DNA from: Patescibacteria group bacterium | GTDB taxonomy: Bacteria > Patescibacteriota > Patescibacteriia > PEXW01 | Length of the DNA: 39,242 nucleotides | NCBI GenBank assembly: GCA_038065015.1 | Contig: JBBTRU010000036.1 | Coordinates: 1 to 39,242 of the forward strand | Reading direction: 5' to 3' | Shown here: positions 4,689 to 37,850 of the stretch, one piece after another | How positions within the stretch are numbered: the stretch's first letter is position 1 | Layout of the letters: the number at the start of each line of letters is the position of its first letter | Made by a program: the position numbers and the translations under genes | The notes under the pieces: model-generated | Told to the model about the DNA's origin: nothing | Seen by the model: only the letters and a program-made list of their open reading frames with translations | Databases searched by the model: none

Positions 4689-5348
4689 TTAGTTCGCTTT
4701 GGCTTCAACAGCTTTCTTTTCGAAAATATCGCCGCGGTAGATCCACACCTTCACGCCAATGGCGCCGTAGGTGGTAAACGCTGCGCCGCGACCAAAGTCA
4801 ACATCGGCGCGCAGGGTTTGCAACGGGAGCTTGCCCCAAGTGAGCGATTCGGTACGGGCAATTTCCGCACCGTTCAAGCGGCCGGCAACCATCACGCGGA
4901 CGCCCTGGCCGCCGCCTTTCTTCACCTGTTCAACCGATTGCTTGAGAATGCGGCGGAAAGGCAAGCGCTTCTCCAGTTGCTCGATCATGTTCTGGGCAAC
5001 GAGTTGCGCCACAATTGCCGGGTTTGCGACTTCTTGAATGTTCACTTTAAACTTCGTCTTCGGCGGAAGCAATTTTGCCAGCTGCACTTTCAAATCCTCT
5101 ACGCCAGCCCCGCCGCGACCAATGACGATACCGGGCTTGGCCGTAATAATGGTAATGGTGACAATGTTTCCAGAGCGCTCAATTTCCGTACGGGCAATGC
5201 CCGCCGCGCGTAACTTTGTTCGAATAAAACGCTTCAGGGTTACATCCTGCTGAAGCAAGGTGCGGAAATCACGCTTGGCATACCACTTGGAAGACCATTC
5301 CGTGGTAATACCGAGACGCAGCGACGTTGGGTGAACTTTATTGCCCAT
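4689..5348 (-). CDS. rpsC: 30S ribosomal protein S3
   Basis: 219 aa starting MGNKVHPTSLRLGITTEW. Confidence 0.97.
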   Translation of the reverse strand: MGNKVHPTSLRLGITTEWSSKWYAKRDFRTLLQQDVTLKRFIRTKLRAAGIARTEIERSGNIVTITIITAKPGIVIGRGGAGVEDLKVQLAKLLPPKTKFKVNIQEVANPAIVAQLVAQNMIEQLEKRLPFRRILKQSVEQVKKGGGQGVRVMVAGRLNGAEIARTESLTWGKLPLQTLRADVDFGRGAAFTTYGAIGVKVWIYRGDIFEKKAVEAKAN

Positions 5349-5351
5349 AGG

Positions 5352-5804
5352 TTAAGACTGGGAGGAGGGTGAGGGTGCGGAGGCTGGAGTGGCGGGAACA
5401 TGCTCAACGTCAGTTTTTGCCTTGGGCTTTTCTGTCTTCGCCTGAGCTTTAACTTTCTTCACTTTAGCGGCGGGCGCATCCTTGACCGTAATGGTAATAT
5501 GCGAGGCATGTTTGAGAATAGGATTTGCCCGGCCCATGGCTTTGGGCGTGAAACGCTTGAGCCGCTGCGCCATGTCTACCGTTATGGCGCTAATAATGAG
5601 CTGCTCGGGGCTAAGGTCGTGGTGCTGCTTGGCATTCGCAATTGCTGAACGGAGCAGAATGCGAATTTGCGCGCTACTCCCCTTGGGCAAATGGGTGAGG
5701 ATATCCAAGGCTTGCGGTACGCGCTTGCCACGCAGCAGCCCGGCAATGAGCCGGATCTTACGGGGAGAAACGCGATAGTTGCGGAGGGTTGCAGAGGCGT
5801 GCAT
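5352..5804 (-). CDS. rplV: 50S ribosomal protein L22 (Lys/Ala/Pro-rich C-tail)
   Basis: 150 aa with YRVSPRKIRLIAGLLRGK. Confidence 0.95.
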   Translation of the reverse strand: MHASATLRNYRVSPRKIRLIAGLLRGKRVPQALDILTHLPKGSSAQIRILLRSAIANAKQHHDLSPEQLIISAITVDMAQRLKRFTPKAMGRANPILKHASHITITVKDAPAAKVKKVKAQAKTEKPKAKTDVEHVPATPASAPSPSSQS

Positions 5805-9348: not shown

Positions 9349-10533
<1,185 letters not shown>

Positions 10534-10632: not shown

Positions 10633-12723
10633 CTACCTCGCGGCAGGCTGGCCCGCCGCCTTGGCAATAATGCCTTCGGCCACATTGCGGGGCGTTTCGG
10701 CGTAATGGCTGAATTCCATGGAATACGAGGCCCGACCCTGGGTCATGGACCGGAGGGCGGTGGCATAGCCGAACATTTCGGCCAGTGGCACGTCTGCGTC
10801 AATGACGCGCATGTTGCCGCGGTCCCGCATTTCTTTAATCTGGGCGCGCTTGCTGTTAAGGTCGCCAATGACATCACCCATAAAAGATTCGGGGGTAACC
10901 GCTTCAACCTTCATAATGGGTTCCAGCAGAACAGGCTTGGCCTTTTTGAACGCGGCCTGCACGGCCATGGAACCGGCAATTTTGAAAGCCATTTCCGAAG
11001 AGTCCACATCGTGGTAGCTCCCATCGGTCACGGTCACTTTGGCATCGATAATCGGGAAGCCCGCCAAGATCCCGCGGTCCAGGGCTTCGGCAATGCCATT
11101 ATTAATAGGTTTAATGAATTCTTTCGGGATCGCCCCGCCTTTGACATCGTCGACGAATTCGTAGCCTTTCCCCTTTTCGTTGGGTTCGATAGTGACCGTA
11201 CAGTGCCCGTACTGACCGCGGCCGCCGGTCTGGCGGATGTACTTGCCTTCGCCTTCGGCACTGGCCGTAATGGTTTCTTTATAGGCAACCTGGGGTTTAC
11301 CCACATTTGCTTCCACTTTGAATTCGCGCTTCATGCGGTCCACAATAATATCCAGGTGCAATTCGCCCATACCCGAAATAATGGTTTGGTTGGTTTCTTC
11401 GTTGTACTTTACGCGGAACGTCGGGTCTTCTTCGGCCAAGCGCTGGATAGCGGTACCCATTTTTTCCTGGTCGGCCTTGGTCTTGGGTTCAATAGCCAGG
11501 TCTATAACCGGCGTGGGAAAGGTAATAGACTCCAGCACCACGTGGTGATCGGGGTCACAAATGGTGTGGCCGGTAAAAGTTTTCTTGAGGCCGACGATAG
11601 CGGCGATTTCCCCGGTAAAGACTTCTTGCACTTCTTCCCGGTGGTTGGCGTGGAGGCGGACAATGCGGCCCACGCGTTCTTTCTCGCCCGTTGAGGTGTT
11701 GTACACGTAGGAACCAGCCGTCAGTTTGCCGGTGTAGATGCGGAAAAAAGCCAGCTTGCCCACAAAAGGGTCAGCTGCAATTTTAAAGACTAAGCCCGCG
11801 AATGGTTTTGCATCATCCGGTGTGCACACAACTTCGGCACCGGTCTTTGGGTCCGTACCTTTCGCGGCCGAAACTTCCAGCGGATTGGGCAGGTAGTCCA
11901 CCACGGCATCGAGCAATAGCTGCACGCCTTTGTTCTTCAGTGCCGAACCGCAGAGCACAGGGACCAGTGCATTGGCGATAACCGCTTTGCGCAAGGTCAC
12001 TTTCAACTCTGCCAAGGCCGGTTCTTTGCCTTCCAAGTACTGGTTCAGTTGCTGCTCGTCATTCTCCACGATTGCTTCGATGAGTTTGTGACGATAGTCT
12101 TCGACCTTTTCTTTCATGTCGGCTGGCACGTCAATTTCTTGCACATCCTGGCCGAGATCGTCGTTGTAAATATAAGCTTTGCGGGTAAACAAATCGATAA
12201 CGCCTTTGAAAGTTTCGGCCGCGCCAATGGGCAGCTGCAGCGGATGCGCGCGCGTGGTCAGTCGTTCGTGAATGCTCTTGAGGTCAAAATAGAAATCCGC
12301 GCCCATGCGGTCCATCTTGTTAATAAAGCAAATGCGCGGCACGCCAAACTTTTCGGCCTGGTGCCAGACCGTCTCGGACTGCGACTCTACGCCCGCGACG
12401 CCGTCAAAAACGACCACACCGCCGTCAAGCACACGCAAGCTGCGCTGCACTTCGACCGTGAAATCTATGTGGCCAGGGGTATCAATGAGGTTAATTTGCT
12501 TGCCGTTCCAAAAACAGGTGGTGGCGGCGGCAGTGATAGTGATGCCGCGCTCTTTCTCCTGTTCCATCCAGTCCATTTCGGCGGCGCCTTCGTGCACTTC
12601 GCCAATTTTGTGCTTTTTGCCCGTGTAGAACAAAATGCGCTCGGACACGGTGGTCTTCCCCGCGTCAATGTGGGCAATAATACCGATATTCCGAGTGTTT
12701 TCTAGCGAGTATTCACGGGGCAT
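10633..12723 (-). CDS. fusA: Elongation factor G
   Basis: 696 aa with [14 protein letters not shown] and the EF-G domain order. Confidence 0.99.
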
Positions 12724-12726
12724 ACA

Positions 12727-12764
12727 TTACGAATTACGAAAAGGGATACAATAGTACGAAATAC
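12727..12764 (-). repeat. TTCGTAA-heptamer element upstream of fusA
   Basis: Minus strand GTATTTCGTACTATTGTATCCCTTTTCGTAATTCGTAA, then TGT, then ATG. No GGAGG-type SD. Confidence 0.8.
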
Positions 12765-12943
12765 ATGAACCAAAGGCGGCAGCGGTGCAGTGCGATACGA
12801 CGGTCTGGAGCGAGGAACGAACGAACCGTACTGACGTACGGTGAGTGAGTGCCGCAGCGAAGACCAAGCCCGAAGGGTCGCGCTCGCAGTGGTCGGGCTC
12901 TGCCCGCCAATGCGACGCGATAGCGCACGCACCCCTGCCGCCG

Positions 12944-13408
12944 CTACGCGAAGTGGGCAAAGGCGCGGTTAGCTTCTGCCATGCGGTGAACGTCTAATTT
13001 CTTCTTGACCGCATCACCTTCGTTGTTCACTGCGGCAATGAGTTCGGCAGCGAGCTTCTGCGCCATAGGCTTGCCCTTCTTGCCCCGGGCGGCCGTAAGA
13101 ATCCAGCGGAAGGCCAGCGCTTGCCGGCGATCGCCGCGGACTTCCATTGGCACTTGGTAGTTAGATCCACCCACGCGCTTGGCTTTTACTTCGACCACCG
13201 GGGCAACGTTGCGGATGGCCAGTTCAAACGCTTCGAGCTGCGGCTTGCCGGTTTTCTCGTGAAGAATATCGAGGGCTTGGAAGACAATTTTCTGGGCCAC
13301 GGTTTTCTTGCCGCGCTCCATAAGGTAGTTGACGAATTTTGCCAACGCCAAACTCTTGTACTTCGGGTCTGGTTGGATAACACGACGTGGTGCTTGTTTA
13401 CCGCGCAT
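12944..13408 (-). CDS. rpsG: 30S ribosomal protein S7
   Basis: 154 aa starting [17 protein letters not shown], with [16 protein letters not shown]-like core. Confidence 0.97.
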
Positions 13409-13828: not shown

Positions 13829-13917
13829 TTTGAGTAGAAACAAATGACCGCGGTGGTGTCTGGCCCCGCTGTCTGATGAAGAACGTTGGGGAAATTCTAC
13901 AGGTTCAAGCAGGTGAG

Positions 13918-13946
13918 AGCGTACCACGGGGAGGAGGGTACGTCAA
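13918..13946 (-). promoter_or_regulatory. Candidate promoter of the str operon
   Basis: Minus strand TTGACG (13941-13946), 17 nt, TACGCT (13918-13923). About 90 nt upstream of rpsL. Confidence 0.35.
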
Positions 13947-13957
13947 GGGAACCAGTG

Positions 13958-14075
13958 TTACGAAATACGAATGGTACCTACGAATATACGAATTACGAAT
14001 CTACTTGTTCAAGCCTATAATTCTGATTAGAGAATTCGTATTTCGTATATTCGTATCTTTTTTCGTAATTCGTAA
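13958..14075. repeat. Inverted pair of 43-nt TACGAA/TTCGTA repeat arms around a 32-nt spacer
   Basis: Left arm TTACGAAATACGAATGGTACCTACGAATATACGAATTACGAAT (13958-14000). Right arm AATTCGTATTTCGTATATTCGTATCTTTTTTCGTAATTCGTAA (14033-14075). The spacer contains TATAAT. Confidence 0.85.
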
Positions 14076-14079
14076 CCCA

Positions 14080-14709
14080 CTATGGGACAATAATCCGGAA
14101 GACAAAAGTTTCAACGGCCTGAAAAACTGTGCCGAGGAAGTTCTGCCCGAAGAAAATGAGGAAGAGCAGGATGACGAAGCCGTACCGCTGGAGCCCTTCG
14201 ACTAATCCTGCAAACTGCTGCGGGAGCAGGGAGAGGAGTTTGGAACCGTCCAGCGGCGGGATGGGCAGGAGGTTGAAAAGCATGAGGACCACGTTGAACT
14301 GCACCAAAAAAGCCAGGAAGGTGTGGAGGAGGTTGTCGGCAGGCAGGTTACCAATTTGCAGGACCAACCTAAATACCAAACCAAAGAAGAGGACGCCCAG
14401 AAGATTTGAGGCTGGTCCGGCAAGGGAAACAATTGCCGGCCCCCAGCGTTTGGCTTTGAGATTGTACGGGTTGAACGGCACGGGCTTGCCCCAGCCAAAA
14501 CCAAAAAGGACAAGGACCAAAAACCCCATGGGGTCCACGTGCGAGAGCGGGTTGAGCGTCACCCGGCCTTCCAGCTCGGCCGTGCTATCGCCTTGCAGTT
14601 TGGCCACCAAGGCATGGCTAAATTCGTGGATGGTAATTGCCACGGTTATGGCGGCAACCCACGCCAGCGCAACCGCGGGATTCGACAGGAGGATATTGAT
14701 GAAGTTCAT
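14080..14709 (-). CDS. Site-2 protease family (peptidase M50) membrane metalloprotease
   Basis: 209 aa with HEFSH (HExxH) and NLLPIPPLDG motifs. Multiple hydrophobic spans. Confidence 0.85.
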   Translation of the reverse strand: MNFINILLSNPAVALAWVAAITVAITIHEFSHALVAKLQGDSTAELEGRVTLNPLSHVDPMGFLVLVLFGFGWGKPVPFNPYNLKAKRWGPAIVSLAGPASNLLGVLFFGLVFRLVLQIGNLPADNLLHTFLAFLVQFNVVLMLFNLLPIPPLDGSKLLSLLPQQFAGLVEGLQRYGFVILLFLIFFGQNFLGTVFQAVETFVFRIIVP

Positions 14710-16623: not shown

Positions 16624-16651
16624 TTGCATAGCCTGTTTTTCCTGTTACACT
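16624..16651 (+). promoter_or_regulatory. Candidate promoter for the metK leader
   Basis: TTGCAT (16624-16629), 16 nt, TACACT (16646-16651). About 15 nt upstream of the candidate aptamer. Confidence 0.4.
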
Positions 16652-16663
16652 GTTTGTACAATT

Positions 16664-16840
16664 CGCGTATCAAGAGTGCTGGGAAGAGTTCTCGCTCGCT
16701 TACCTGTCCGCCGACCTTCGTCGGCCGTAGCCGACTTCGGTCGGCAAAGGCCGAAGCCTTGGCGGAGGTGGACACCCAGCCGGCAACTCGTCTGTAATAA
16801 GACATAAGTGCTACTTCGAGCCCGCAAGGGAAGATACACA
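16664..16840 (+). promoter_or_regulatory. Candidate SAM-I-clan (S-box-like) riboswitch aptamer upstream of metK
   Basis: GUAUCAAGAG-U-GCUGGG...CCCAGC-C-GGCAAC...GUGCUAcUUCgAGCCC-GCAA-GGGAAGAUAC. P1 is GUAUC (16667-71) / GAUAC (16833-37). Matches S-box core strings as I recall them. Confidence 0.5.
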
Positions 16841-17032
16841 GTTACCACCAACTGCCTTCCGTTTACGCGGAAGGCGCTTCGTAATGTATATGCCTTCCCC
16901 TCTCTCGCCCTTCCTCCGGACCTATCGGTCCGTAGGACCGGAGGTCGGGCACCTGGGTGCTTCCGATGGGTCGCACCCGCCTGCGGCTCCCCAAGGTGAG
17001 AGAGTACTGTAAACGTACTCCATTCATATAAT

Positions 17033-17056
17033 CGTATCTCTTTTCGTAATTCGTAA
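17033..17056 (+). repeat. TTCGTAA-heptamer element upstream of metK
   Basis: CGTATCTCTTTTCGTAATTCGTAA, then ACGCT, then ATG. No SD. Confidence 0.8.
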
Positions 17057-17061
17057 ACGCT

Positions 17062-18084
17062 ATGCTTACCACGACAGAGTCAGTCACCATTGGCCACCCG
17101 GATAAAATCTGCGACCAAATTTCGGACGCGATTGTGGACGCCTACCTCGTACAAGACCCCCTCTCCCGCGTGGCGGTGAACAGCATGGGCTCACATGGCA
17201 TCCTCTTCATTGGCGGGGAGGCCACATCGAAAGGCACGGTGGACCACGCCAAACTCGCCGAAACACTCTACAAAGAAATTGGCTACGATGAGACGCTAAA
17301 AATCATCGTGAATGTGGTGCCTCAATCCCCCGACATTGCCCAAGGCGTGGACACCGGCGGCGCGGGCGACCAAGGCATGATGTACGGCTTTGCCACAGAT
17401 GAGACACCCGAAATGCTCCCCCGCCAGGTTGTTGCCGCCCACGCCCTCACCCGCGGACTCACTGCGCTCCGAGCAAAGCCAGGATTTGAGTGGTTGAAAC
17501 CAGACGGAAAGTCACAGGTGACGTATGCGAATGGAAATCTCAAAACCATCCTCGTCTCCTGTCAGCACGCAGAGAACATTGAGCAGGTAGAAATTAAAGC
17601 GCAGCTCACCGAGCACCTCTTCAAGCCAGTATTCGGTAATCTCACTGGTATTGAAATTCTCGTAAACCCAACCGGCCGCTTTGTCCAAGGCGGATTCTTC
17701 GCTGACACTGGCTTAACCGGCCGGAAAATTATGGTGGATACCTACGGCGGCCTTATTCCGCACGGCGGCGGCGCTTTTAGCGGCAAAGACCCCTCGAAAG
17801 TTGACCGTTCGGCTGCCTACTTCTGCCGCTACGTGGCGCGGCAGCTGGTGAAGCGCGAACTCTGCCACCGGGCGACCGTGCGCGTGGCCTACGCCATTGG
17901 CCGCGCCGAACCGGTGATGGTTGATGTGGAGAGCGATGCCAAGGAAGACCTGCGGCCGCTCATCGAGAAGGAGTTTGACTTCACGCCTAAAGCGATCATC
18001 GAAAAGCTCGGCCTCCGCAAGCCCATCTACAAGCAGACCGCAGAGAACGGTCACTTCGGGAATCCGGTATTTCCGTGGGAGTAA
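17062..18084 (+). CDS. metK: S-adenosylmethionine synthetase (short, 340 aa)
   Basis: GHPDKICDQISDA, GAGDQGMMYGFA, DTYGG and GGGAFSGKDPSKVDRSAAY motifs. Confidence 0.95.
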   Translation: MLTTTESVTIGHPDKICDQISDAIVDAYLVQDPLSRVAVNSMGSHGILFIGGEATSKGTVDHAKLAETLYKEIGYDETLKIIVNVVPQSPDIAQGVDTGGAGDQGMMYGFATDETPEMLPRQVVAAHALTRGLTALRAKPGFEWLKPDGKSQVTYANGNLKTILVSCQHAENIEQVEIKAQLTEHLFKPVFGNLTGIEILVNPTGRFVQGGFFADTGLTGRKIMVDTYGGLIPHGGGAFSGKDPSKVDRSAAYFCRYVARQLVKRELCHRATVRVAYAIGRAEPVMVDVESDAKEDLRPLIEKEFDFTPKAIIEKLGLRKPIYKQTAENGHFGNPVFPWE

Positions 18085-18776: not shown

Positions 18777-19157
18777 TTACTTTTTGAGGAGAGTTTTGAC
18801 CTTATCAACGATTGCCGCCGGCGTAAAGTTGGTCTTGATAAAGTAGTCGGTAGCCCCAAACTCGCGGCCTTTTTGCACGTCTTCTTCCTGGCCGAGGTTC
18901 GTCAGCATGATAATAGGGGTAGTTTTGAATTCGCTGTCCGCGCGGAGCAGCTTGAGCGCTTGGAAGCCATCCATTTTCGGCATGATGATATCGAGGAGGA
19001 TAATGTCGGGCTTCATTTTTTTCACCAGGGCAATGCCGGCCTCGCCGTCGGCGGCGTGCTGCAAATCAAACCCTTCTTTGGTGAACTTCATGGTATACAT
19101 ATCGGCGATAAGCGGATCGTCCTCGATGAGGGCAACGGTAATTTTCTTGTCGGTCAT
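18777..19157 (-). CDS. Stand-alone CheY-like response-regulator receiver
   Basis: 126 aa with EDD, LLDIIMP, LTNLG and IKT receiver motifs. No output domain. Confidence 0.88.
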   Translation of the reverse strand: MTDKKITVALIEDDPLIADMYTMKFTKEGFDLQHAADGEAGIALVKKMKPDIILLDIIMPKMDGFQALKLLRADSEFKTTPIIMLTNLGQEEDVQKGREFGATDYFIKTNFTPAAIVDKVKTLLKK

Positions 19158-25401: not shown

Positions 25402-26227
25402 AGGTATTCAAGCGGTCAAGATTTTTGAATATGCGGCTGGCAACCGTGGTCTGGAAAATCTGGCTCACGGTCTGCTGGCCGCTGGTGCGCGAGACTTCCA
25501 GGCTGTAGGTAACGCGTGGGTGCAGCGAAACTGTATCACCGAATTTCTGTGGGAAGCAGTAGCATTTCCCGCCACGCTCGTTTTGGCATGTATCGGCCAC
25601 ATCCGGATTTTCGCAAATCGTCCCCCACCGACAATTCAGCTCCGTGAAAGAAGGTGGACTCTCGGTCCCACATTCCATTGCAACCTGCGCGGCAAACGGA
25701 TCTTCCGACGGGGAAATAAAAAAAGTAAAGCTACTCACGGTTAAATTTGGGGGAGAAATATCGGTATTGTCCCAAGCAGTAGTCAGTGAAGCATCATTAC
25801 ATGCAACTGTCACCGGCGCAATGGGCACCATACGTTGAATTGTCTTTGTCGTACTGTTCAATCGGTATAAAATTTGCGTATTCAGCGCATCACGTACTAC
25901 GAGACATTCATTGCCGGTACCGGTTAAAGCAGCAAAAAGTTTTTTCGGCTCGCCAACAAGAAAGGTTGAGTAGTACGAATAGTCCACGCTCCCTTCCCGC
26001 AAGTCTTTGGCAATTTGCTCCACCACGGCCCGGGCGTCGTTTTGCAATTCTTGCTGGTTGAGCGCCCGGCGTTGCTGCTGCACAAAAATGAGAAAAACGT
26101 TAACCGCCATGAGCGCCGTAATCGAGAAAATTGCCATGGTAACAAGTACTTCTATCAGAGTAAACCCAGCACCACTTTTCCGGGCAGCCCAAGAATTCAC
26201 CGGCAAAGTGGTGCTGGGTGAACCCAT
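25391..26227 (-). CDS. PilW/GspJ-like minor pilin
   Basis: The ATG at 26227 lies 17 nt after the upstream stop. It gives MGSPSTTLPVNSWAARKSGAG|FTLIEVLVTMAIFS. The longer track ORF overlaps the upstream gene. Confidence 0.75.
   Translation of the reverse strand: MGSPSTTLPVNSWAARKSGAGFTLIEVLVTMAIFSITALMAVNVFLIFVQQQRRALNQQELQNDARAVVEQIAKDLREGSVDYSYYSTFLVGEPKKLFAALTGTGNECLVVRDALNTQILYRLNSTTKTIQRMVPIAPVTVACNDASLTTAWDNTDISPPNLTVSSFTFFISPSEDPFAAQVAMECGTESPPSFTELNCRWGTICENPDVADTCQNERGGKCYCFPQKFGDTVSLHPRVTYSLEVSRTSGQQTVSQIFQTTVASRIFKNLDRLNTYVP
26164..26219. repeat. 56-nt palindrome (20-bp arms, 16-nt loop) encoding a prepilin leader
   Basis: ACCCAGCACCACTTTTCCGG-gcagcccaagaattca-CCGGCAAAGTGGTGCTGGGT, with one arm mismatch. 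Confidence 0.9.
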
Positions 26228-27392: not shown

Positions 27393-28326
27393 CGGGTATG
27401 TGGGTTATCACGCCTTCTTTGGTAACGCGGACAATGCGGCAATCACTCGTCGGTCGAGTCTTTAGTGCCACCATGAGCTGCACTTCTTTCCATAGTTTTC
27501 CACCCGTAAGGTTCCAGGGCGCCCCAGCGGTAGGGGTTTTTATGCTCACGTTGTCCGAGAGCACGATTGTGCGGCCGTCGGGCGAGGAAAAGTCTACAAT
27601 GGCCTGCAATGGGTAGGTGTCAGAGATAGTACCCGCGGCGGGTTGGGGGGCGGGTTCGGTTTTGTTACGCCAGGGAGAGCCATCGTCACAGGTAACTGCT
27701 ACCGCCGATTCCGCTTCGATAAGCTGGATATCTAGCAAGGTAACGCGCGGGTCAAAGCTATATGCTGTTCGTATGGTATCACCTTTGTAGTAATTCGTGC
27801 TGCCAATCTTGTCGCTACTAAACAAATAATCTTTACCGGTGTCCATATTCTTGAACGCGTTTGTGAGCACGTCCCAGTTGGGGTCGCCCGACGAAAATGG
27901 GAAGCAGCTGCCCAGGCACATCACCCGGTCACCGAACATGAAGTATTGGGTGAGGTCTGGCCAATGATTGTCGCCAAAACTAATCCCGTCCTGGCAGCTG
28001 AAAAACATGCCGTAGCCGCCGCTGGCCGTGGTGTGCGTGCATGCATTAGCACCTGTGCCAGTATTTGTGCAGTCAGTATCCGTAGTGCACTCCATATCCA
28101 GATTTTGCACGCCACAGAAACCCGAGACCTGGCCGCCAATGGTGTGCTCTTGGGCAAAGCGCAGGCGGGAGACGAGCAACGCCGTCTCGCGGGAGAGTAG
28201 GCTATCGTCACTCCCCCGCCGATAGTTGGCGACAACCAGGCCGAAGAGAAGAGAAAAAATGCCCAAGGTTACAATAATCTCCACCAACGTGAATCCGGCT
28301 TTACGGCTAGAAGGTACAATCCGCAT
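27373..28326 (-). CDS. GspH/FimU-like minor pilin (317 aa)
   Basis: MRIVPSSRKAG|FTLVEIIVTLGIFS...ANYRRGSDDS...RLRFAQE. Ends DGDCTF. Confidence 0.78.
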   Translation of the reverse strand: MRIVPSSRKAGFTLVEIIVTLGIFSLLFGLVVANYRRGSDDSLLSRETALLVSRLRFAQEHTIGGQVSGFCGVQNLDMECTTDTDCTNTGTGANACTHTTASGGYGMFFSCQDGISFGDNHWPDLTQYFMFGDRVMCLGSCFPFSSGDPNWDVLTNAFKNMDTGKDYLFSSDKIGSTNYYKGDTIRTAYSFDPRVTLLDIQLIEAESAVAVTCDDGSPWRNKTEPAPQPAAGTISDTYPLQAIVDFSSPDGRTIVLSDNVSIKTPTAGAPWNLTGGKLWKEVQLMVALKTRPTSDCRIVRVTKEGVITHIPDGDCTF

Positions 28327-29749
28327 CGCCGCTTTGGGAAATCGCCCCCGTTTGATCTACGGTAATTACCCGGCAATCTTTAGTACGTTTGACAATGCCC
28401 AGTATTACTTCAGCCTTAGCCCATGGATTATTCGGGTCTATTTGCCAAGTTGCCGTAGGTGGACTGCTGGTAACATTATCGTTGATCTGCACCTTACGAC
28501 CGTCAGGGGGCAAGAATCGAACTACGGCCTGGATGGGATAATTTTGATTATCACCGACTGGTGCTAACCCAGAGTCAATTGACCCATTAGGTAATGAGGG
28601 TGAATTTGTATTTGGTACGCCTCCAGGATTTGTTACACTATTATTTATTCGCCATCTTGAAGTATTCGTACATTGAGAACTCGTCACGCCATCAAGTGCC
28701 GTAATACGAATATCACGTACTTCTACATCGTTACTCAAAGTATACATTTCCTTTAAAGTGTCGCCACGATACCCGGGGAAAGACTGCCCATGCCATAAGT
28801 AATGAATTACACCATCACTAATATACTGCCCTTGCCAGGGTTTATATGGGTTTATTGGAATAGTTCCTGATTGGAAACAACCCTGTTTATTAGAGCCATC
28901 ATCATTTACAGATTGTTTGCAAGCAAGTACATCTGCAAAAATACTGTAACTTCTTTTACCGTAGTAATTAATTGGGTAACTATTATTCGAAACGACTGTT
29001 GGACTCCCTATAGTATGTGGATATTGAAATGGAATGTACCCCTTATTTGGTCCCTCTGTGTTATCTACAGCCGCAACAATGGTGCAAGAGAAAACTACCG
29101 CGTATCCACCGGGTGGGCTTTTTTCATCTGTGCACACATCATACTCAGTCGCAGTACCTGTGATACCTAGACAATTTGTTGGTGCTTTACACCTACAGTC
29201 AGCATCAGTCACGCACTGTTGCCCAGAAAAGAACGAACAGTATTTTACGGTCCTCCCGCTCGACGTAAGCTCTTGGGCGTAGCGCATATTTGCCATGACC
29301 AAATTTACCTCCCGATTGAGCACGCTGTCTTTGTTGCCTCGGGTGTAATTGGCCAAGAAAAAAGCGAGCATCGCAAAGGTAATGCCCATAGCGACAGTTA
29401 TTTCTACAAGTGTGAACCCAGCACCACTTTGCCGGTGGGCTCTTGGGATGCCCGGCAAAGTGGTGCTGGGTAAATCCCCGCTCGCATCATGTTTTTTTAC
29501 TGCACTAAAACCAAGTCTTTTTCTTAACTCACGTATCGCGTTGCCATTATGCTTAAGGTTGTGTTCACGCATACGAGCTATTTGTTCTTCTTTAAATGCT
29601 TCATAGTAAACCAATTGCCAAGGTTTATACCGTTTCGTAGCCGGACTCTTACCGTCATTATGTTCTTCTATTCTGCGTTGTAGGTCACGGGTAGAACCGA
29701 CATAATACTCACTGCGTTTTAGACTCTTGAGGAGATAGACGTAAAACAT
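28307..29749 (-). CDS. GIY-YIG nuclease domain fused in frame to a GspH/FimU-like minor pilin
   Basis: The ATG at 29749 gives MFYVYLLKS..YYVGSTRDLQRRIEEHN..WQLVYYE. There is no stop before ...RQSGAG|FTLVEITVAMG...ANYTRGNKDS. Ends DADCTF. Confidence 0.7.
   Translation of the reverse strand: MFYVYLLKSLKRSEYYVGSTRDLQRRIEEHNDGKSPATKRYKPWQLVYYEAFKEEQIARMREHNLKHNGNAIRELRKRLGFSAVKKHDASGDLPSTTLPGIPRAHRQSGAGFTLVEITVAMGITFAMLAFFLANYTRGNKDSVLNREVNLVMANMRYAQELTSSGRTVKYCSFFSGQQCVTDADCRCKAPTNCLGITGTATEYDVCTDEKSPPGGYAVVFSCTIVAAVDNTEGPNKGYIPFQYPHTIGSPTVVSNNSYPINYYGKRSYSIFADVLACKQSVNDDGSNKQGCFQSGTIPINPYKPWQGQYISDGVIHYLWHGQSFPGYRGDTLKEMYTLSNDVEVRDIRITALDGVTSSQCTNTSRWRINNSVTNPGGVPNTNSPSLPNGSIDSGLAPVGDNQNYPIQAVVRFLPPDGRKVQINDNVTSSPPTATWQIDPNNPWAKAEVILGIVKRTKDCRVITVDQTGAISQSGDADCTF
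29416..29471. repeat. 56-nt perfect palindrome encoding a prepilin leader, loop inverted relative to 26164-26219
   Basis: ACCCAGCACCACTTTGCCGG-tgggctcttgggatgc-CCGGCAAAGTGGTGCTGGGT. Confidence 0.9.
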
Positions 29750-29766
29750 GCAAAGTGGTGCTGGGT
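29455..29766 (-). mobile_element. Candidate GIY-YIG gene cassette bracketed by a 17-nt direct repeat
   Basis: GCAAAGTGGTGCTGGGT occurs at 29455-29471 and 29750-29766. The interior is AT-rich (29581-29640 counted at 20/60 GC versus 39/60 for 36181-36240). Confidence 0.5.
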
Positions 29767-30560
29767 CATAAGCCAATCATATTCTGGTACCAGTTTACCA
29801 CGCTGGGGCCAAAAATGTAGGCCGCAATGCCCGCCGCACCCAGGAACACTCCAAAAGGGAGCTGGCTTTTGAGCCTTACCCTGCCCCGGGCCAGCAAATA
29901 GGCCGCCCACACGCTGCCGCTTAGGTACGAGGCGAAGAGCGCCAAAATAACCCCGGGCAACCCCAGGTATGCGCCGAGGATAGCCCCAATGCGGATATCG
30001 CCGCTGCCCACCCACTTCCCCCGCGAAAAATACCATTGCAGCCAGAACCAGCCAGCACCGATGGTTATGGCGAGGATGAGGGATACAAGCTGGGAGCTTA
30101 ACGCGGAGGACTGGCCACTGAAAATCCGGGCAAGCTGAAGGACGAACAGAATTGCCAGGGTGGGCAGGCTTATGCTGTCAGGTACAATTTTATGCCGCCC
30201 GTCAATGAATGCGAGTACCAGCAGGCTGCACGCGCCAATTGCGCCGATGAAAAATTCTAACGAGAGGCCAAACCGCGAAAAAAGTAATATGAAAATAATC
30301 GCCGTGAGCATTTCGACAATAATGTACTGGGGGCTTATGGGCTTGTGGCAAAACCGGCAGCGGCCGCGGAGAAACAGGTAGCTAACAATCGGCACCAAGT
30401 CTGGGCCCTTGAGCACTTTTTTGCAGTGCATGCACCGCGAGCGCTGGTTGAGGTTCAAAAACTTTCGGCGCTTGGGCAAGCGAAAAATGACGACGTTCAA
30501 AAAACTGCCGATGATAGCGCCAAGCAGGAAGAGGAAGATGGGGATGACAAGTGAGGGCAT
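29766..30560 (-). CDS. pilD: Prepilin peptidase / N-methyltransferase (A24 family)
   Basis: The ATG at 30560 gives MPSLVIPIFLF. CMHC...CRFC Zn motif, FIDGRHKIVPD and GSGDIRIGA catalytic Asp motifs. Confidence 0.88.
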   Translation of the reverse strand: MPSLVIPIFLFLLGAIIGSFLNVVIFRLPKRRKFLNLNQRSRCMHCKKVLKGPDLVPIVSYLFLRGRCRFCHKPISPQYIIVEMLTAIIFILLFSRFGLSLEFFIGAIGACSLLVLAFIDGRHKIVPDSISLPTLAILFVLQLARIFSGQSSALSSQLVSLILAITIGAGWFWLQWYFSRGKWVGSGDIRIGAILGAYLGLPGVILALFASYLSGSVWAAYLLARGRVRLKSQLPFGVFLGAAGIAAYIFGPSVVNWYQNMIGL

Positions 30561-30561
30561 A

Positions 30562-30951
30562 CTATATATCCCTCTCCCTGGGTGGGAGAGGGTGGCCAAA
30601 GGCCGGGAGAGGGGGAAGCTGCTGCTGTATTTTTTCTAGAACTGCGGTAATGTCAGAGGCAATCTCATTATTCCAAACGCGAATAGTTTTCCACCCTTCG
30701 CTCTGTAACCACATATCACGTTCAGCATCGTGCACTCTTTGGTCTGGCTCATCATGTCCACTTCCATCAACTTCAACTATAAGTTTGTATTTCGGTGCAC
30801 AGAAATCAACAATATAATTACCAATGGGGTACTGTCGATAAAATTTGACCCCTCCAAAACGCCCTGCCCGTAAGTACTGCCAGAGTTTCGCTTCAGTATC
30901 CGTTTGTTTCTTTCGTAGAGTACGTGCAAATTTTGTTAGTGCATGGCGCAT
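30562..30951 (-). CDS. DUF559 (Vsr-like endonuclease fold) protein
   Basis: 129 aa with LRKKQTDTEAKLWQYLR...FYRQYPIGNYIVDF...LIVEVDGSGH...RVWNNEI. The C-terminus is encoded by repeat module Y. Confidence 0.85.
   Translation of the reverse strand: MRHALTKFARTLRKKQTDTEAKLWQYLRAGRFGGVKFYRQYPIGNYIVDFCAPKYKLIVEVDGSGHDEPDQRVHDAERDMWLQSEGWKTIRVWNNEIASDITAVLEKIQQQLPPLPAFGHPLPPRERDI
30569..30615. repeat. GC-rich hairpin module Y
   Basis: TCCCTCTCCC..GTGGGAGAGGGTGGCCaAAGGCCGGGAGAGGGG. Near-identical copy at 34882-34928. Confidence 0.85.
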
Positions 30952-30958
30952 GGTTTTT

Positions 30959-31004
30959 CCTCCTCTCCCCCGCTTCGCGGACCCTCTCCTACCAGAGGAG
31001 AGGG
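30959..31004. repeat. GC-rich hairpin module X
   Basis: CCTCCTCTCCCCCGCTTCGCGGACCCTCTCCTACCAGAGGAGAGGG is identical over 46 nt to 34823-34868. Its reverse complement supplies a GGAGG 7 nt before the DUF559 ATG. Confidence 0.9.
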
Positions 31005-34674: not shown

Positions 34675-34928
34675 GGGGTAGGCGTGGTCCCTTGACCGCG
34701 CCGATTTCCAACCAAGTCTCTAGCAAGACCCCTCCTTAGTCCTTCCGGTCGCTCCCGATGGGTCGCGCCGCCTTCGGCCCCTTCGTAAGGGGAGGATAAC
34801 TTTCAAACGGCCTACATTATCCCCTCCTCTCCCCCGCTTCGCGGACCCTCTCCTACCAGAGGAGAGGGATATTTTACAGTCTCCCTCTCCCCTCCGTGGG
34901 AGAGGGTGGCCGAAGGCCGGGAGAGGGG
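34675..34928. repeat. Cluster of GC-rich hairpin modules W, Z (with insert), X and Y
   Basis: W 34675-34703, Z 34727-34831, X 34823-34868, Y 34882-34928. Each matches copies elsewhere in the window. Confidence 0.85.
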
Positions 34929-36141: not shown

Positions 36142-37218
36142 TTAGCCGCGGTTTACCATGGTGCGAATGCTGGCCGGGTCTTGCGCCACGGCCTCGGCAT
36201 CTTCGGGCAAAATATCGCCCACGCCAACGAGGCTGGCCAGCGTCCGGTCGAGCGATTCCGTGCCGTCTTCCCGCGTGGTCTGGATGGTATTGGCCAGCTG
36301 CAAAAACTGGCCGTCGCGGATAACCGCGCGAGTGGCCGGGGCAGGGGTAAAAAGCTCCACCACCAGAATGCGGCCGCCGCCCACCCGGGGCACCAGGCGC
36401 AGGTTGATAACGCCCTGCAAGGCATCGGCCAGCTCTTTGCGCACGACGGGCTGGTCGGCCGGGGAAAAGGCATTCACCATGCGCTCAATGGCCTGGACGG
36501 TGGAATCGGCGGTGATAGTGGCCAGGATGAGCTTGCCGCTGTGCAGGGCTTTGACGCACGCGCGCATGTCCTCGGTGGTATCCAGCTCGGCAATTGCGAC
36601 AACATCGACATCTTCCATTTCGGTAAGCGCCAGGGCGTGGCCGATGCTCGGCACGTCGGTGCCAACTTCGCGCTGCTCGATAACGCTCTTCTGGCTCACC
36701 AGCAAAAACTCAATGGGTTGCTCGATGGTAAGAATGTGCGTAACCCGCTCTTGGTTAATGAGGTTGACCAGCGAGGCCAGCACCGTGGTGCGGCCCGAAC
36801 CATAGGGGCCGGAAATGAGCACCAGGCCGTGGGGGGCGCGGGCAAAAGTTTCGACCACCTTGGGCAAGCCCAACTCCCGGGGGGCCGGGATCGCATCGGG
36901 AATGTAGCGGAGATCGAGCGAGAGCGTGCCCTTCTGGTACATGGCGGTCAGGCGGAAGCGGAGCTTGCCTTCGAGCGCGACGGTGACGTGCAAATCGCGG
37001 TCTTTTTCCAAGGTGGCTTTCTGGCTGTCGTTGAGCACGCCGTCCATAAAGCCCTTTAGCACGTCGGCGCTGACTACGGGTTCCTGTTCCAGCGCCACGA
37101 GTTTGCCGTCCACGCGCAAGTAGGGCGGGTTGCCGGGCACAAGGTGCACGTCGGACGCGCGGTATTGCGTGGCCTGGGTAAGGATGCGGGTAATGGCTTG
37201 TTGTTCGGAGGTAAGCAT
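36142..37218 (-). CDS. PilT-like secretion ATPase with degenerate catalytic motifs
   Basis: 358 aa. Walker A is GPYGSGRTT (Arg where Lys is expected), TIEQPIEF replaces TIEDPIE, and ATITADS replaces the TLHT His box. Confidence 0.8.
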   Translation of the reverse strand: MLTSEQQAITRILTQATQYRASDVHLVPGNPPYLRVDGKLVALEQEPVVSADVLKGFMDGVLNDSQKATLEKDRDLHVTVALEGKLRFRLTAMYQKGTLSLDLRYIPDAIPAPRELGLPKVVETFARAPHGLVLISGPYGSGRTTVLASLVNLINQERVTHILTIEQPIEFLLVSQKSVIEQREVGTDVPSIGHALALTEMEDVDVVAIAELDTTEDMRACVKALHSGKLILATITADSTVQAIERMVNAFSPADQPVVRKELADALQGVINLRLVPRVGGGRILVVELFTPAPATRAVIRDGQFLQLANTIQTTREDGTESLDRTLASLVGVGDILPEDAEAVAQDPASIRTMVNRG

Positions 37219-37223
37219 GCGGG

Positions 37224-37283
37224 TTACGAAATACGAATTGGGACCTACGAAACTACGAATTACGAAAAGAGATACGAATTTCG
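37224..37283 (-). repeat. TTCGTAA-heptamer element upstream of the pilT-like gene
   Basis: Minus strand CGTATCTCTTTTCGTAATTCGTAGTTTCGTAGGTCCCAATTCGTATTTCGTAA, then CCCGC, then ATG. Confidence 0.85.
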
Positions 37284-37380
37284 GGAAACTTGCTAAGGCG
37301 CGGTCAATGCGCTATTCGTAATTTCCCGCCACCTATTGCAGTCAAGATAGAAGTCAGCGGGATCCCGCCCCATGGCGGGA

Positions 37381-37415
37381 CGTATATTCGTAGCATTTCC
37401 ATTCGTAATTCGTAA
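37381..37415 (+). repeat. TTCGTA-repeat arm in the opposite orientation
   Basis: CGTATATTCGTAGCATTTCCATTCGTAATTCGTAA abuts the receiver-gene stop. Confidence 0.8.
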
Positions 37416-37850
37416 TTACTTCACCAGCCTTTTCACCTTGGCCACCACTTCGGACGGCATGAAGTGCGCTTTGATGAGGTAGTCTACCGCGCCCAGCTTA
37501 AGGCCTTTCTGCACGTCTTCTTTCTGGCCCAGGTTGGTAAGCAGGATGACCGGTACGGGCTTGGTTTTCGGGTTGGCTTTTACTTCTTTGAGCACATCGA
37601 AGCCGCTCTTCTTGGGCAGGACGATATCCAGCAAAATGATATCCGGCACTTCGCGCTCGGCCAGGGTCACGGCCTGTTCGCCATCGCTGGCCAGCACCAC
37701 GCGAAAACCTTCCAGCTCGAGCTTTGTTACGTACATGCCGGCCAAAAAAGTATCATCTTCCACCAGGAGGATGGTGCTTTTGCCGGAGGGTTTTTTCACA
37801 CCGGTATCCGGGCTGGCTTTCTTCGGGGTTGGTCGTTTGGCAATTGGCAT
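37416..37850 (-). CDS. Stand-alone CheY-like receiver with a basic N-extension
   Basis: 144 aa, a paralog of 18777-19157 (shares LLVEDD, ILLDIVLP and LLTNLGQKEDVQKG). Lies between pilB and the pilT-like gene. Confidence 0.88.
   Translation of the reverse strand: MPIAKRPTPKKASPDTGVKKPSGKSTILLVEDDTFLAGMYVTKLELEGFRVVLASDGEQAVTLAEREVPDIILLDIVLPKKSGFDVLKEVKANPKTKPVPVILLTNLGQKEDVQKGLKLGAVDYLIKAHFMPSEVVAKVKRLVK

Follow-up and report, generated by a model that had tools for sequence, protein, structure and literature searches.

The STRR sequences of cyanobacteria, repeats with a 7-bp unit and of unknown function, give rise to intergenic hairpins such as those at the hupS-hupL junction (PMC2670836). 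The STRR heptamer repeats of heterocystous cyanobacteria are the closest known kind to the element found at positions 13958 to 14075 of a 39,242-nt stretch of DNA ("the window," meaning the whole stretch that was analyzed). This element, too, consists of tandem 7-bp units that are dispersed in noncoding DNA and arranged in inverted, hairpin-forming arrays. It differs from the STRRs in its occurrence in Patescibacteria, in its unit, TTCGTAA, and in its arms, which are bipartite (three plus two units), fall into distinct left and right types, and bracket a nuclease gene in relatives of the host. The classical STRR units are CCCCAGT and similar heptamers. A limited literature search covering the motif, heptameric repeats, and the intervening-sequence protein retrieved nothing relevant beyond the STRR description.

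Three other kinds of element share some of these features. The intervening sequences of 23S rRNA (TIGR02436/PF05635), which are known to be excised by RNase III, contain a small ORF within inverted repeats that pair into a long stem, and four-helix-bundle genes in Bacteroidota are flanked by TTCGTAA arrays. However, the element described here lies between protein-coding genes rather than in an rRNA helix, its copy in the window lacks an ORF, and the cargo in the relatives from Patescibacteria (CPR) is a GxxExxY protein, not a four-helix bundle. MITEs, such as the Correia elements of Neisseria, are likewise short, noncoding, and bounded by terminal inverted repeats, with many intergenic copies, nested insertions, and variable presence among relatives, and may adjoin promoters or start codons. 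A MITE-like repeat was one of the possibilities raised by the original prediction, and it holds insofar as the element is a dispersed inverted repeat that occurs with and without cargo. It fails in that there is no target site duplication; furthermore, the interior is not conserved, the arms are heptamer arrays rather than unique repeats, and the element has no known parent insertion sequence that encodes a transposase. Finally, REP/BIME sequences are intergenic hairpins, often in inverted pairs, that lack target site duplications, lie at gene ends or between cistrons, and have a selfish origin with possible use by the host. REPs are single imperfect palindromes of ∼35 nt with a GTAG motif that are mobilized by RAYT transposases, whereas the arms of the present element are tandem heptamers.

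The host is a groundwater Patescibacteria bacterium that is Kerfeldbacteria-like, and the relatives of its EF-G come from Kerfeldbacteria-like metagenome-assembled genomes (MAGs) of Patescibacteria. Exact protein matches assign the window to assemblies from Hainich groundwater. The material read comprises 39 kb of the host genome and 8- to 22-kb pieces of relatives. EF-G of the window is 95.3% identical to that of the relative L004, EF-G of L005 is 97.6% identical to that of C21 (MAG JAUYFT01), identity between these two pairs is ∼88%, and EF-G of SO_2017 is 84% identical to that of all other genomes compared. DNA identity is only 83 to 88% inside each EF-G pair, so the members of a pair are different species. 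A sister species is represented by GCA_964364675.1 (EF-G 95% identical to that of the window). The genes and repeat features of the window are listed in Table 1.

Table 1. Genes, heptamer arrays, and associated features of the window, in map order
Feature	Positions	Strand	Remarks
S10 operon		-	
tuf	9349-10533	-	
fusA	10633-12723	-	
Solo R-type arm	12724-12764	-	Gap TCCCTT; ends 3 nt before fusA ATG
Array of TTCGTA matches	12728-12760	-	
GC-rich structured filler	12765-12943	-	From rpsG stop to fusA-proximal arm
rpsG	12944-13408	-	
rpsL	ATG at 13829	-	
rpsL promoter	13918-13946	-	TTGACG-N17-TACGCT; outside the element; kept in array-free relatives
L-type arm	13958-14000	-	Five TTCGTA(A/T) units reading outward: three units, gap GGTACCA, two units
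Array of TTCGTA matches	13959-13999	-	
Spacer (hairpin loop)	14001-14032		32 nt; variable
R-type arm	14033-14075	+	Five units: three units, gap TCTTTT, two units
Array of TTCGTA matches	14035-14074	+	
M50-peptidase-like gene	14080-14709	-	Stop codon 14080-14082
GC-rich module	16895-17010	+	CCCTCTCTCGCCC...CCCCAAGGTGAGAGAG; 5' of the metK R-type arm
Solo R-type arm	17023-17056	+	Inner units decayed; gap TCTCTT; ends 5 nt before metK ATG
Array of TTCGTA matches	17043-17055	+	
metK	17062-18084	+	
pilC		-	Beyond the M50-like gene
pilT-like ATPase gene	36142-37218	-	
L-type arm with partial R-type fragment	37224-37283	-	Gap GGTCCCA; outer end 5 nt before pilT-like ATG
Array of TTCGTA matches	37225-37278	-	
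R-type arm	37315-37415	+	Split by nested GC-rich palindromic insertion (37322-37381)
Array of TTCGTA matches	37387-37414	+	
CheY-like receiver/response-regulator gene	37416-37850	-	
pilB		-	Beyond the CheY-like receiver gene

The hexamer TTCGTA occurs 44 times on the two strands of the window, compared with 14.4 ± 3.3 times in shuffled sequences (highest shuffle, 25). Four intergenic spacers hold 26 of these matches, 25 of which make up six arrays and one of which lies in the metK leader at 16878; the remaining 18 are dispersed at the background level. All six arrays are intergenic, in a window of which only ∼10%, by rough estimate, is intergenic, and the hexamers within them are spaced by 7 to 8 nt. 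Tandem Repeats Finder reports a period of 7 at 12726-12740, 13979-14000, 14034-14074, 37225-37278, and 37401-37417. The descriptive part of the original prediction is borne out by these data: a TTCGTAA repeat family resides in intergenic DNA, with an inverted pair of 43-nt arms around a 32-nt, TATAAT-containing spacer, and the near-identical core noted upstream of fusA, metK, and the pilT-like gene is there. The metK and pilT copies share a 24-nt core that is 100% identical (repeat I7), and the fusA copy is 84 to 85% identical to both (I3 and I4). The longer version said to be common to the rpsL and pilT upstream regions was recovered as repeat D14, and a unit ends 3 nt before the ATG of fusA and 5 nt before those of metK and pilT, within the predicted 3 to 5 nt. 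Searches of Rfam, at gathering thresholds as well as at permissive E values, yielded no family for the arrays; only a tRNA-Pro passes in the window, and the pair at 13958-14075 has just a chance-level match to a microRNA (E = 0.78).

In the pair at 13958-14075, the two 43-nt arms are 95% complementary over a 22-nt core. The predicted RNA fold of the pair reaches −46.5 kcal/mol (z = −8.4), and RNA transcribed from either strand is predicted to form a long, AU-rich hairpin. From the outer end of the L-type arm it is 11 nt downstream to the −35 box of the rpsL promoter (TTGACG at 13946-13941 and TACGCT at 13923-13918), and the outer end of the R-type arm lies 4 nt from the stop codon of the M50-like gene. 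The TATAAT of the spacer is on the + strand and thus directed away from rpsL; on the - strand, the spacer contains a weak TTGAAC-18-TATATT match. A promoter inside the element was considered and rejected, given the lack of spacer conservation across copies and a match at just 9 of 12 positions.

When one genome per species was scanned, the core turned up at 55 loci, including 12 in C21 (on 11 contigs), 2 in H32-bin092_1, and 1 in SO_2017_GW1_117. The architecture of the arm is fixed, with three units, a gap of 6 to 7 nt, and two units, and the consensus reads ATTCGTATTTCGTATATTCGTA-TCTTTT-TTCGTAATTCGTAA. The left and right types are distinct: the gap is TCYYTT in the R type and variable in the L type, for example, GGTACCA or CTCAAA, and the letters between units are characteristic of each arm type, which leaves conserved mismatches between the arms. 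In the window and its Kerfeldbacteria-like relatives, all nine complete pairs have the same outward polarity, 5'-(TACGAA)n...(TTCGTA)n-3', and enclose either a gene or a spacer of 13 to 100 nt that varies from copy to copy. The outer flanks of five complete pairs share no direct repeat of ≥2 nt such as a target site duplication would leave.

The arms are closely associated with gene boundaries, 18 of 28 ending ≤9 nt from the boundary of a coding sequence. Start codons account for 11 of these (≤9 nt; fusA in three species, metK, pilT, groES, ssb, a folD-like gene, and others) and the stop codons of inward-reading genes for 7 (≤8 nt); five arms are located 5 to 40 nt upstream of −35 boxes, so that the position relative to the promoter is not fixed. 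This placement fits insertion into tight stop-start junctions. Because both arms of a pair point outward, sense-oriented TTCGTAA units in front of start codons are not independent evidence of function. A promoter for leaderless mRNA formed by the last units was also rejected, as no acceptable −10 hexamer could be read from the sequence.

In relatives, the rpsL promoter and leader are conserved, whereas the arrays are not. In L004, L005, and L035, the M50-like gene is followed, upstream of rpsL, by a GC-rich hairpin (CCCCGCACCAC...GTGGTGCGGGG), then by TTGACG-N17-TACGCT (or TACATT) and a leader of ∼110 nt; in C21, the promoter is present without the hairpin and without arrays. The window retains the rpsL promoter and leader and has the 118-nt pair at the position of the relatives' hairpin. 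In the best-supported reading, the element replaced the gene-end hairpin at the str locus and left the rpsL promoter intact.

At the rpsG-fusA junction, the window keeps only the fusA-proximal arm, which in two relatives is the closing arm of a gene cassette. In both C21 (L028 3276-3751) and SO_2017 (L035 4961-5436), this spacer consists of an L arm, a 128-aa gene, an R arm, 3 nt, and the fusA ATG, in that order. The cargo is a GxxExxY/PDDEXK_3 (PD-(D/E)XK) protein (TIGR04256, 3.7e-29; PF13366, 1.6e-28), and the stop codon of its gene (L028 3332-3718; L035 ∼5010-5400) is the first TAA of the R arm. The two GxxExxY proteins are ∼87% identical by manual count, compared with 75% for S7 and 84% for EF-G of the same genomes. 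Homing, that is, repeated entry of the GxxExxY gene at the rpsG-fusA site, is possible; beside the junction, DNA identity shows no drop of the sort that recent gene conversion or homing would leave. The cassette is absent from L005, even though its EF-G is 97.6% identical to that of C21. The spacers of L004 (78 nt) and L005 (101 nt) contain no arrays and, by eye, have in common a short hairpin and a TTTATATAAC-like stretch; the GC-rich filler of the window is missing from both. Cassette-bearing spacers differ from empty ones throughout, so these are not clean insertions. No GxxExxY gene was found beside arrays at any locus other than the two fusA copies, which means that the arrays do not generally come with this gene.

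In L005, the metK leader gives a full-length match to the SAM-I riboswitch (RF00162), with a score of 35.2 bits (E = 2.6e-6) that falls short of the gathering cutoff, and continues through a terminator hairpin directly to the ATG, with no array. The window shares this leader sequence and has ∼170 nt, comprising the GC-rich module and the array, inserted before the ATG; the composite of GC-rich module and R arm recurs at three unrelated loci in C21. Farther upstream in the window leader (16640-16875; compare L005 5055-5161, - strand), there is an ∼85-nt GC-rich insertion near 16690-16775, and detection by Rfam is lost.

Between the CheY-like response-regulator and pilT-like genes, the outer end of the R-type arm abuts the TAA stop of the response-regulator gene at 37416, and the predicted RNA fold of the spacer reaches −69.1 kcal/mol (z = −4.1). 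The corresponding spacers of GCA_964364675.1 and GCA_964347525.1 contain no arrays. A copy in C21, which sits between the CIRCE operator and the groES ATG, aligns with the window pilT copy through the L arm, the nested GC-rich palindrome (TTTCCCGCCAC...CCATGGCGGGAC), and the end of the R arm. That the nested insertion is common to copies at nonorthologous loci indicates spread of the composite by duplication. This mini-element, found within the R arm both at 37322-37381 and in the nonorthologous C21 copy (L021), is suggestive of another family of small insertions, one that has the arrays as its target.

The original prediction suggested that the repeats are a regulon-type operator or translation-control element linking fusA, metK, and pilT, which would call for conservation upstream of the orthologs. 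This part did not survive the comparison. Arrays are absent upstream of rpsL in four of four relatives, of fusA in two of four, of metK in the one examined (L005), and of pilT in two of two, and there are none in 43 kb of DNA from the sister species GCA_964364675.1 that is orthologous to the window. What defeats the regulon reading is that the arrays are absent where relatives have retained the promoter and leader beside them. It had also been argued that fusA, metK, and pilT lack a GGAGG that other genes possess. The first statement is correct, but the absence is not special, because nearly all genes of the window lack a Shine-Dalgarno sequence (about 40 of 45), and the second is misleading: in the 40 nt listed upstream of each gene, a GGAG-like box occurs at only 3 of ∼45 genes (15819, 30951, and 34501). 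The usual gene junction in the window is TAA-N(1-5)-CCT-ATG, and a C/U-rich tract lies 10 to 20 nt upstream of its highly expressed genes. Judging from these junctions, translation initiation in this lineage appears to be largely independent of Shine-Dalgarno pairing.

On balance, we consider it probable that 13958-14075 represents a copy, devoid of cargo, of an element that is dispersed in intergenic DNA, is built from a pair of inverted arrays with five TTCGTA(A/T) heptamers each, and has no role in co-regulation. No transposase or other mobilizing enzyme was identified in the 39-kb window or in the 8- to 22-kb pieces of relatives, no copy in the window contains an ORF, and the cargo-bearing copies in the Kerfeldbacteria-like relatives encode only the GxxExxY nuclease and no known transposase. 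The family would spread as selfish or neutral DNA by means of a trans-acting enzyme or recombination. Once inserted, a copy may act as an intercistronic or gene-end hairpin, that is, as a transcript 3' end, a stabilizer, or a substrate of RNase III, and it would be tolerated right before start codons because the host presumably initiates translation without a Shine-Dalgarno sequence. Co-regulation of fusA, metK, and pilT by the element would not be expected. A role of the hairpin in the host, or a contribution to Shine-Dalgarno-independent initiation, is possible as a secondary effect. The arm pairs are not maximized for pairing, given that each arm has its own conserved sequence and that mismatches between them are maintained; together with the cross-phylum TTCGTAA unit, these arm sequences hint at sequence-specific recognition by some factor, which goes beyond the explanation preferred here.

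The leading alternative, which we regard as conceivable but rather unlikely, is that the pair is an RNA hairpin selected by the host, serving downstream of the M50-like gene as a terminator or insulator and, at fusA and pilT, as an intercistronic RNase III site or stabilizer; processing at the latter two would give the second cistron a short UUCGUAA leader free of structure. The strong predicted folds of the pair and of the pilT spacer, the substitution of the pair for the relatives' GC-rich hairpin at the identical position, and the fit of arms against stop and start codons within operons are all compatible with such a function, as are the inverted pairs found between consecutive genes in viral contigs. 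For the STRR hairpins between hupS and hupL, an effect on transcript stability or translational coupling has been suggested (PMC2670836). However, no U-tract follows the stem, the conserved mismatches and noncomplementary gaps indicate that there is no selection for pairing, and the solo arms at fusA and metK are unable to form a hairpin. The sister species, moreover, lives without arrays at all four loci.

A second alternative, which appears highly improbable, casts the arms as elements of Shine-Dalgarno-independent initiation: the U-rich gap, together with UUCGUAA units 0 to 9 nt from the AUG, would act as an enhancer of the standby or S1 type, or the UAA stops in three frames would support termination-reinitiation. 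Three outward heptamers do, as read from the sequence, supply TAA in all frames, 11 of the 28 arms are close enough to a start codon, and a CYTTTTC tract 10 to 20 nt upstream of fusA and rpsL is present in array-free relatives as well. Nevertheless, the ∼40 window genes that start without a Shine-Dalgarno sequence do so without arrays, the same arms also abut stop codons and promoters, the leader of paired copies would be locked in the predicted stem, and pilin genes in Gottesmanbacteria are preceded by the opposite orientation (TTACGAA). Pairing of UUCGUAA with the 3' end of 16S rRNA was rejected on the basis of the canonical anti-Shine-Dalgarno tail, which is not known to contain a complement to this heptamer.

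Least credible of all is an array of operators for a DNA-binding regulator, or an AT-rich, UP-like promoter enhancer, that would unite the pilus motor with the str operon and metK: the sequence of the unit and the 3+2 layout of the arms are strongly conserved, five arms precede −35 boxes, and the neighbors are mostly highly expressed genes (rpsL, fusA, groES, ssb, and pilins), but the arrays are missing at orthologous promoters that are themselves kept, their placement varies among start codons, −35 boxes, and stop codons, a 7-bp spacing misfits helical phasing, cassettes of other taxa have the same architecture with other heptamers, and the metK gene of a relative has a SAM-I riboswitch-like leader whose sequence is common to the window.

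Other small elements are present in the window. A DUF559 nuclease gene (30562-30951; PF04480, E = 4e-39), among the few with a strong Shine-Dalgarno sequence, is flanked by GC-rich hairpin repeats (region 30562-31004), both of which recur back to back and without the gene at 34823-34928, just past the pilC stop; the gene is missing at the orthologous junction in L251. Within the pilus gene cluster, the ORF at 28307-29776 encodes an N-terminal GIY-YIG domain (PF01541, E = 3.6e-15) and is conserved in L251 and L252. A hairpin family (CCCAGCACCAC...GTGGTGCTGGG) in the pilus region (26164-26219 and 29416-29471) resembles the hairpin at the end of the M50-like gene upstream of rpsL in L004 (8885-8922) and L005 (8862-8900). 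The DUF559 and GIY-YIG genes among repeats fit a genome whose junctions have been colonized by several small repeat and nuclease families. The genes of two CheY-like single-domain receivers (18777-19157 and 37416-37850) are paralogues with 72% identity over 118 nt (18794-18911 versus 37430-37547).

The TTCGTAA unit extends far beyond this lineage. Identical tandem arrays are found in Bacteroidota, Planctomycetaceae, Chloracidobacterium, Ardenticatenaceae, Saccharibacteria, and Gottesmanbacteria, in at least 120 metagenome contigs with GC contents from 30% to 67%, and in 66 stretches of viral contigs. In a member of Gottesmanbacteria (L044 5061-7332), three TTACGAA arrays of the same orientation lie upstream of three consecutive pilin genes, and in the viral contig IMGVR_UViG_3300044524_000063 (L190 6395-8788), consecutive genes are separated by three TTCGTA...TACGAA pairs, whose polarity is reversed. 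Beyond the Kerfeldbacteria-like group, one polarity predominates without being universal (12 to 3 in metagenomes). The excess is specific to heptamers, as in the STRRs, and is reproduced in metagenome loci: 708 kb of such loci (L062 to L181) contain 185 perfect tandem arrays (≥3 copies) with a period of 7, compared with 1 to 6 perfect arrays for each of the periods 5, 6, and 8 to 11, so that period 7 is 30 to 180 times more common. Units other than the TTCGTAA seed, 49 in number, are used by 57 of these 185 arrays.

Some of these arrays surround genes of a recognizable kind. In Sphingobacterium (L029) and Bacteroidales (L046), TTCGTAA arrays bracket four-helix-bundle genes that match TIGR02436, the 23S rRNA intervening-sequence/Avd-like family (E = 2.5e-29 and 6.2e-32, respectively). 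Among all loci fetched, inverted heptamer arrays bracket 9 to 10 of 12 four-helix-bundle genes, and the units around such genes vary, being either TTCGTAA or another heptamer (CACAGTT, TTTCAAG, or TTCATAA; L008 4056-4816, L019, and L088). A broader proposal, which we put forward as speculative, is that TTCGTAA-type arrays are the ends of a cross-phylum class of small cassettes with Avd-like four-helix-bundle or GxxExxY genes that insert at the stop-start junctions of highly expressed operons and in rRNA in Patescibacteria, Bacteroidota, Planctomycetota, and phages, and that STRR repeats are the footprints of such cassettes, through one heptamer-specific mechanism.

For the organism itself, the comparison removes a tempting regulatory model, as there is no evidence of a regulon that joins translation factors, SAM synthesis, and the pilus motor. 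Instead, it shows that even the reduced genome of a member of Patescibacteria carries dispersed heptamer-repeat elements, set against the start codons of essential genes. For the family, the presence of heptamer arrays around small genes in several phyla points to a shared mechanism, and the 35-year-old puzzle of the STRRs is thereby linked to a testable idea, namely, that heptamer arrays bracket Avd-like and PD-(D/E)XK genes across several phyla and viral contigs.
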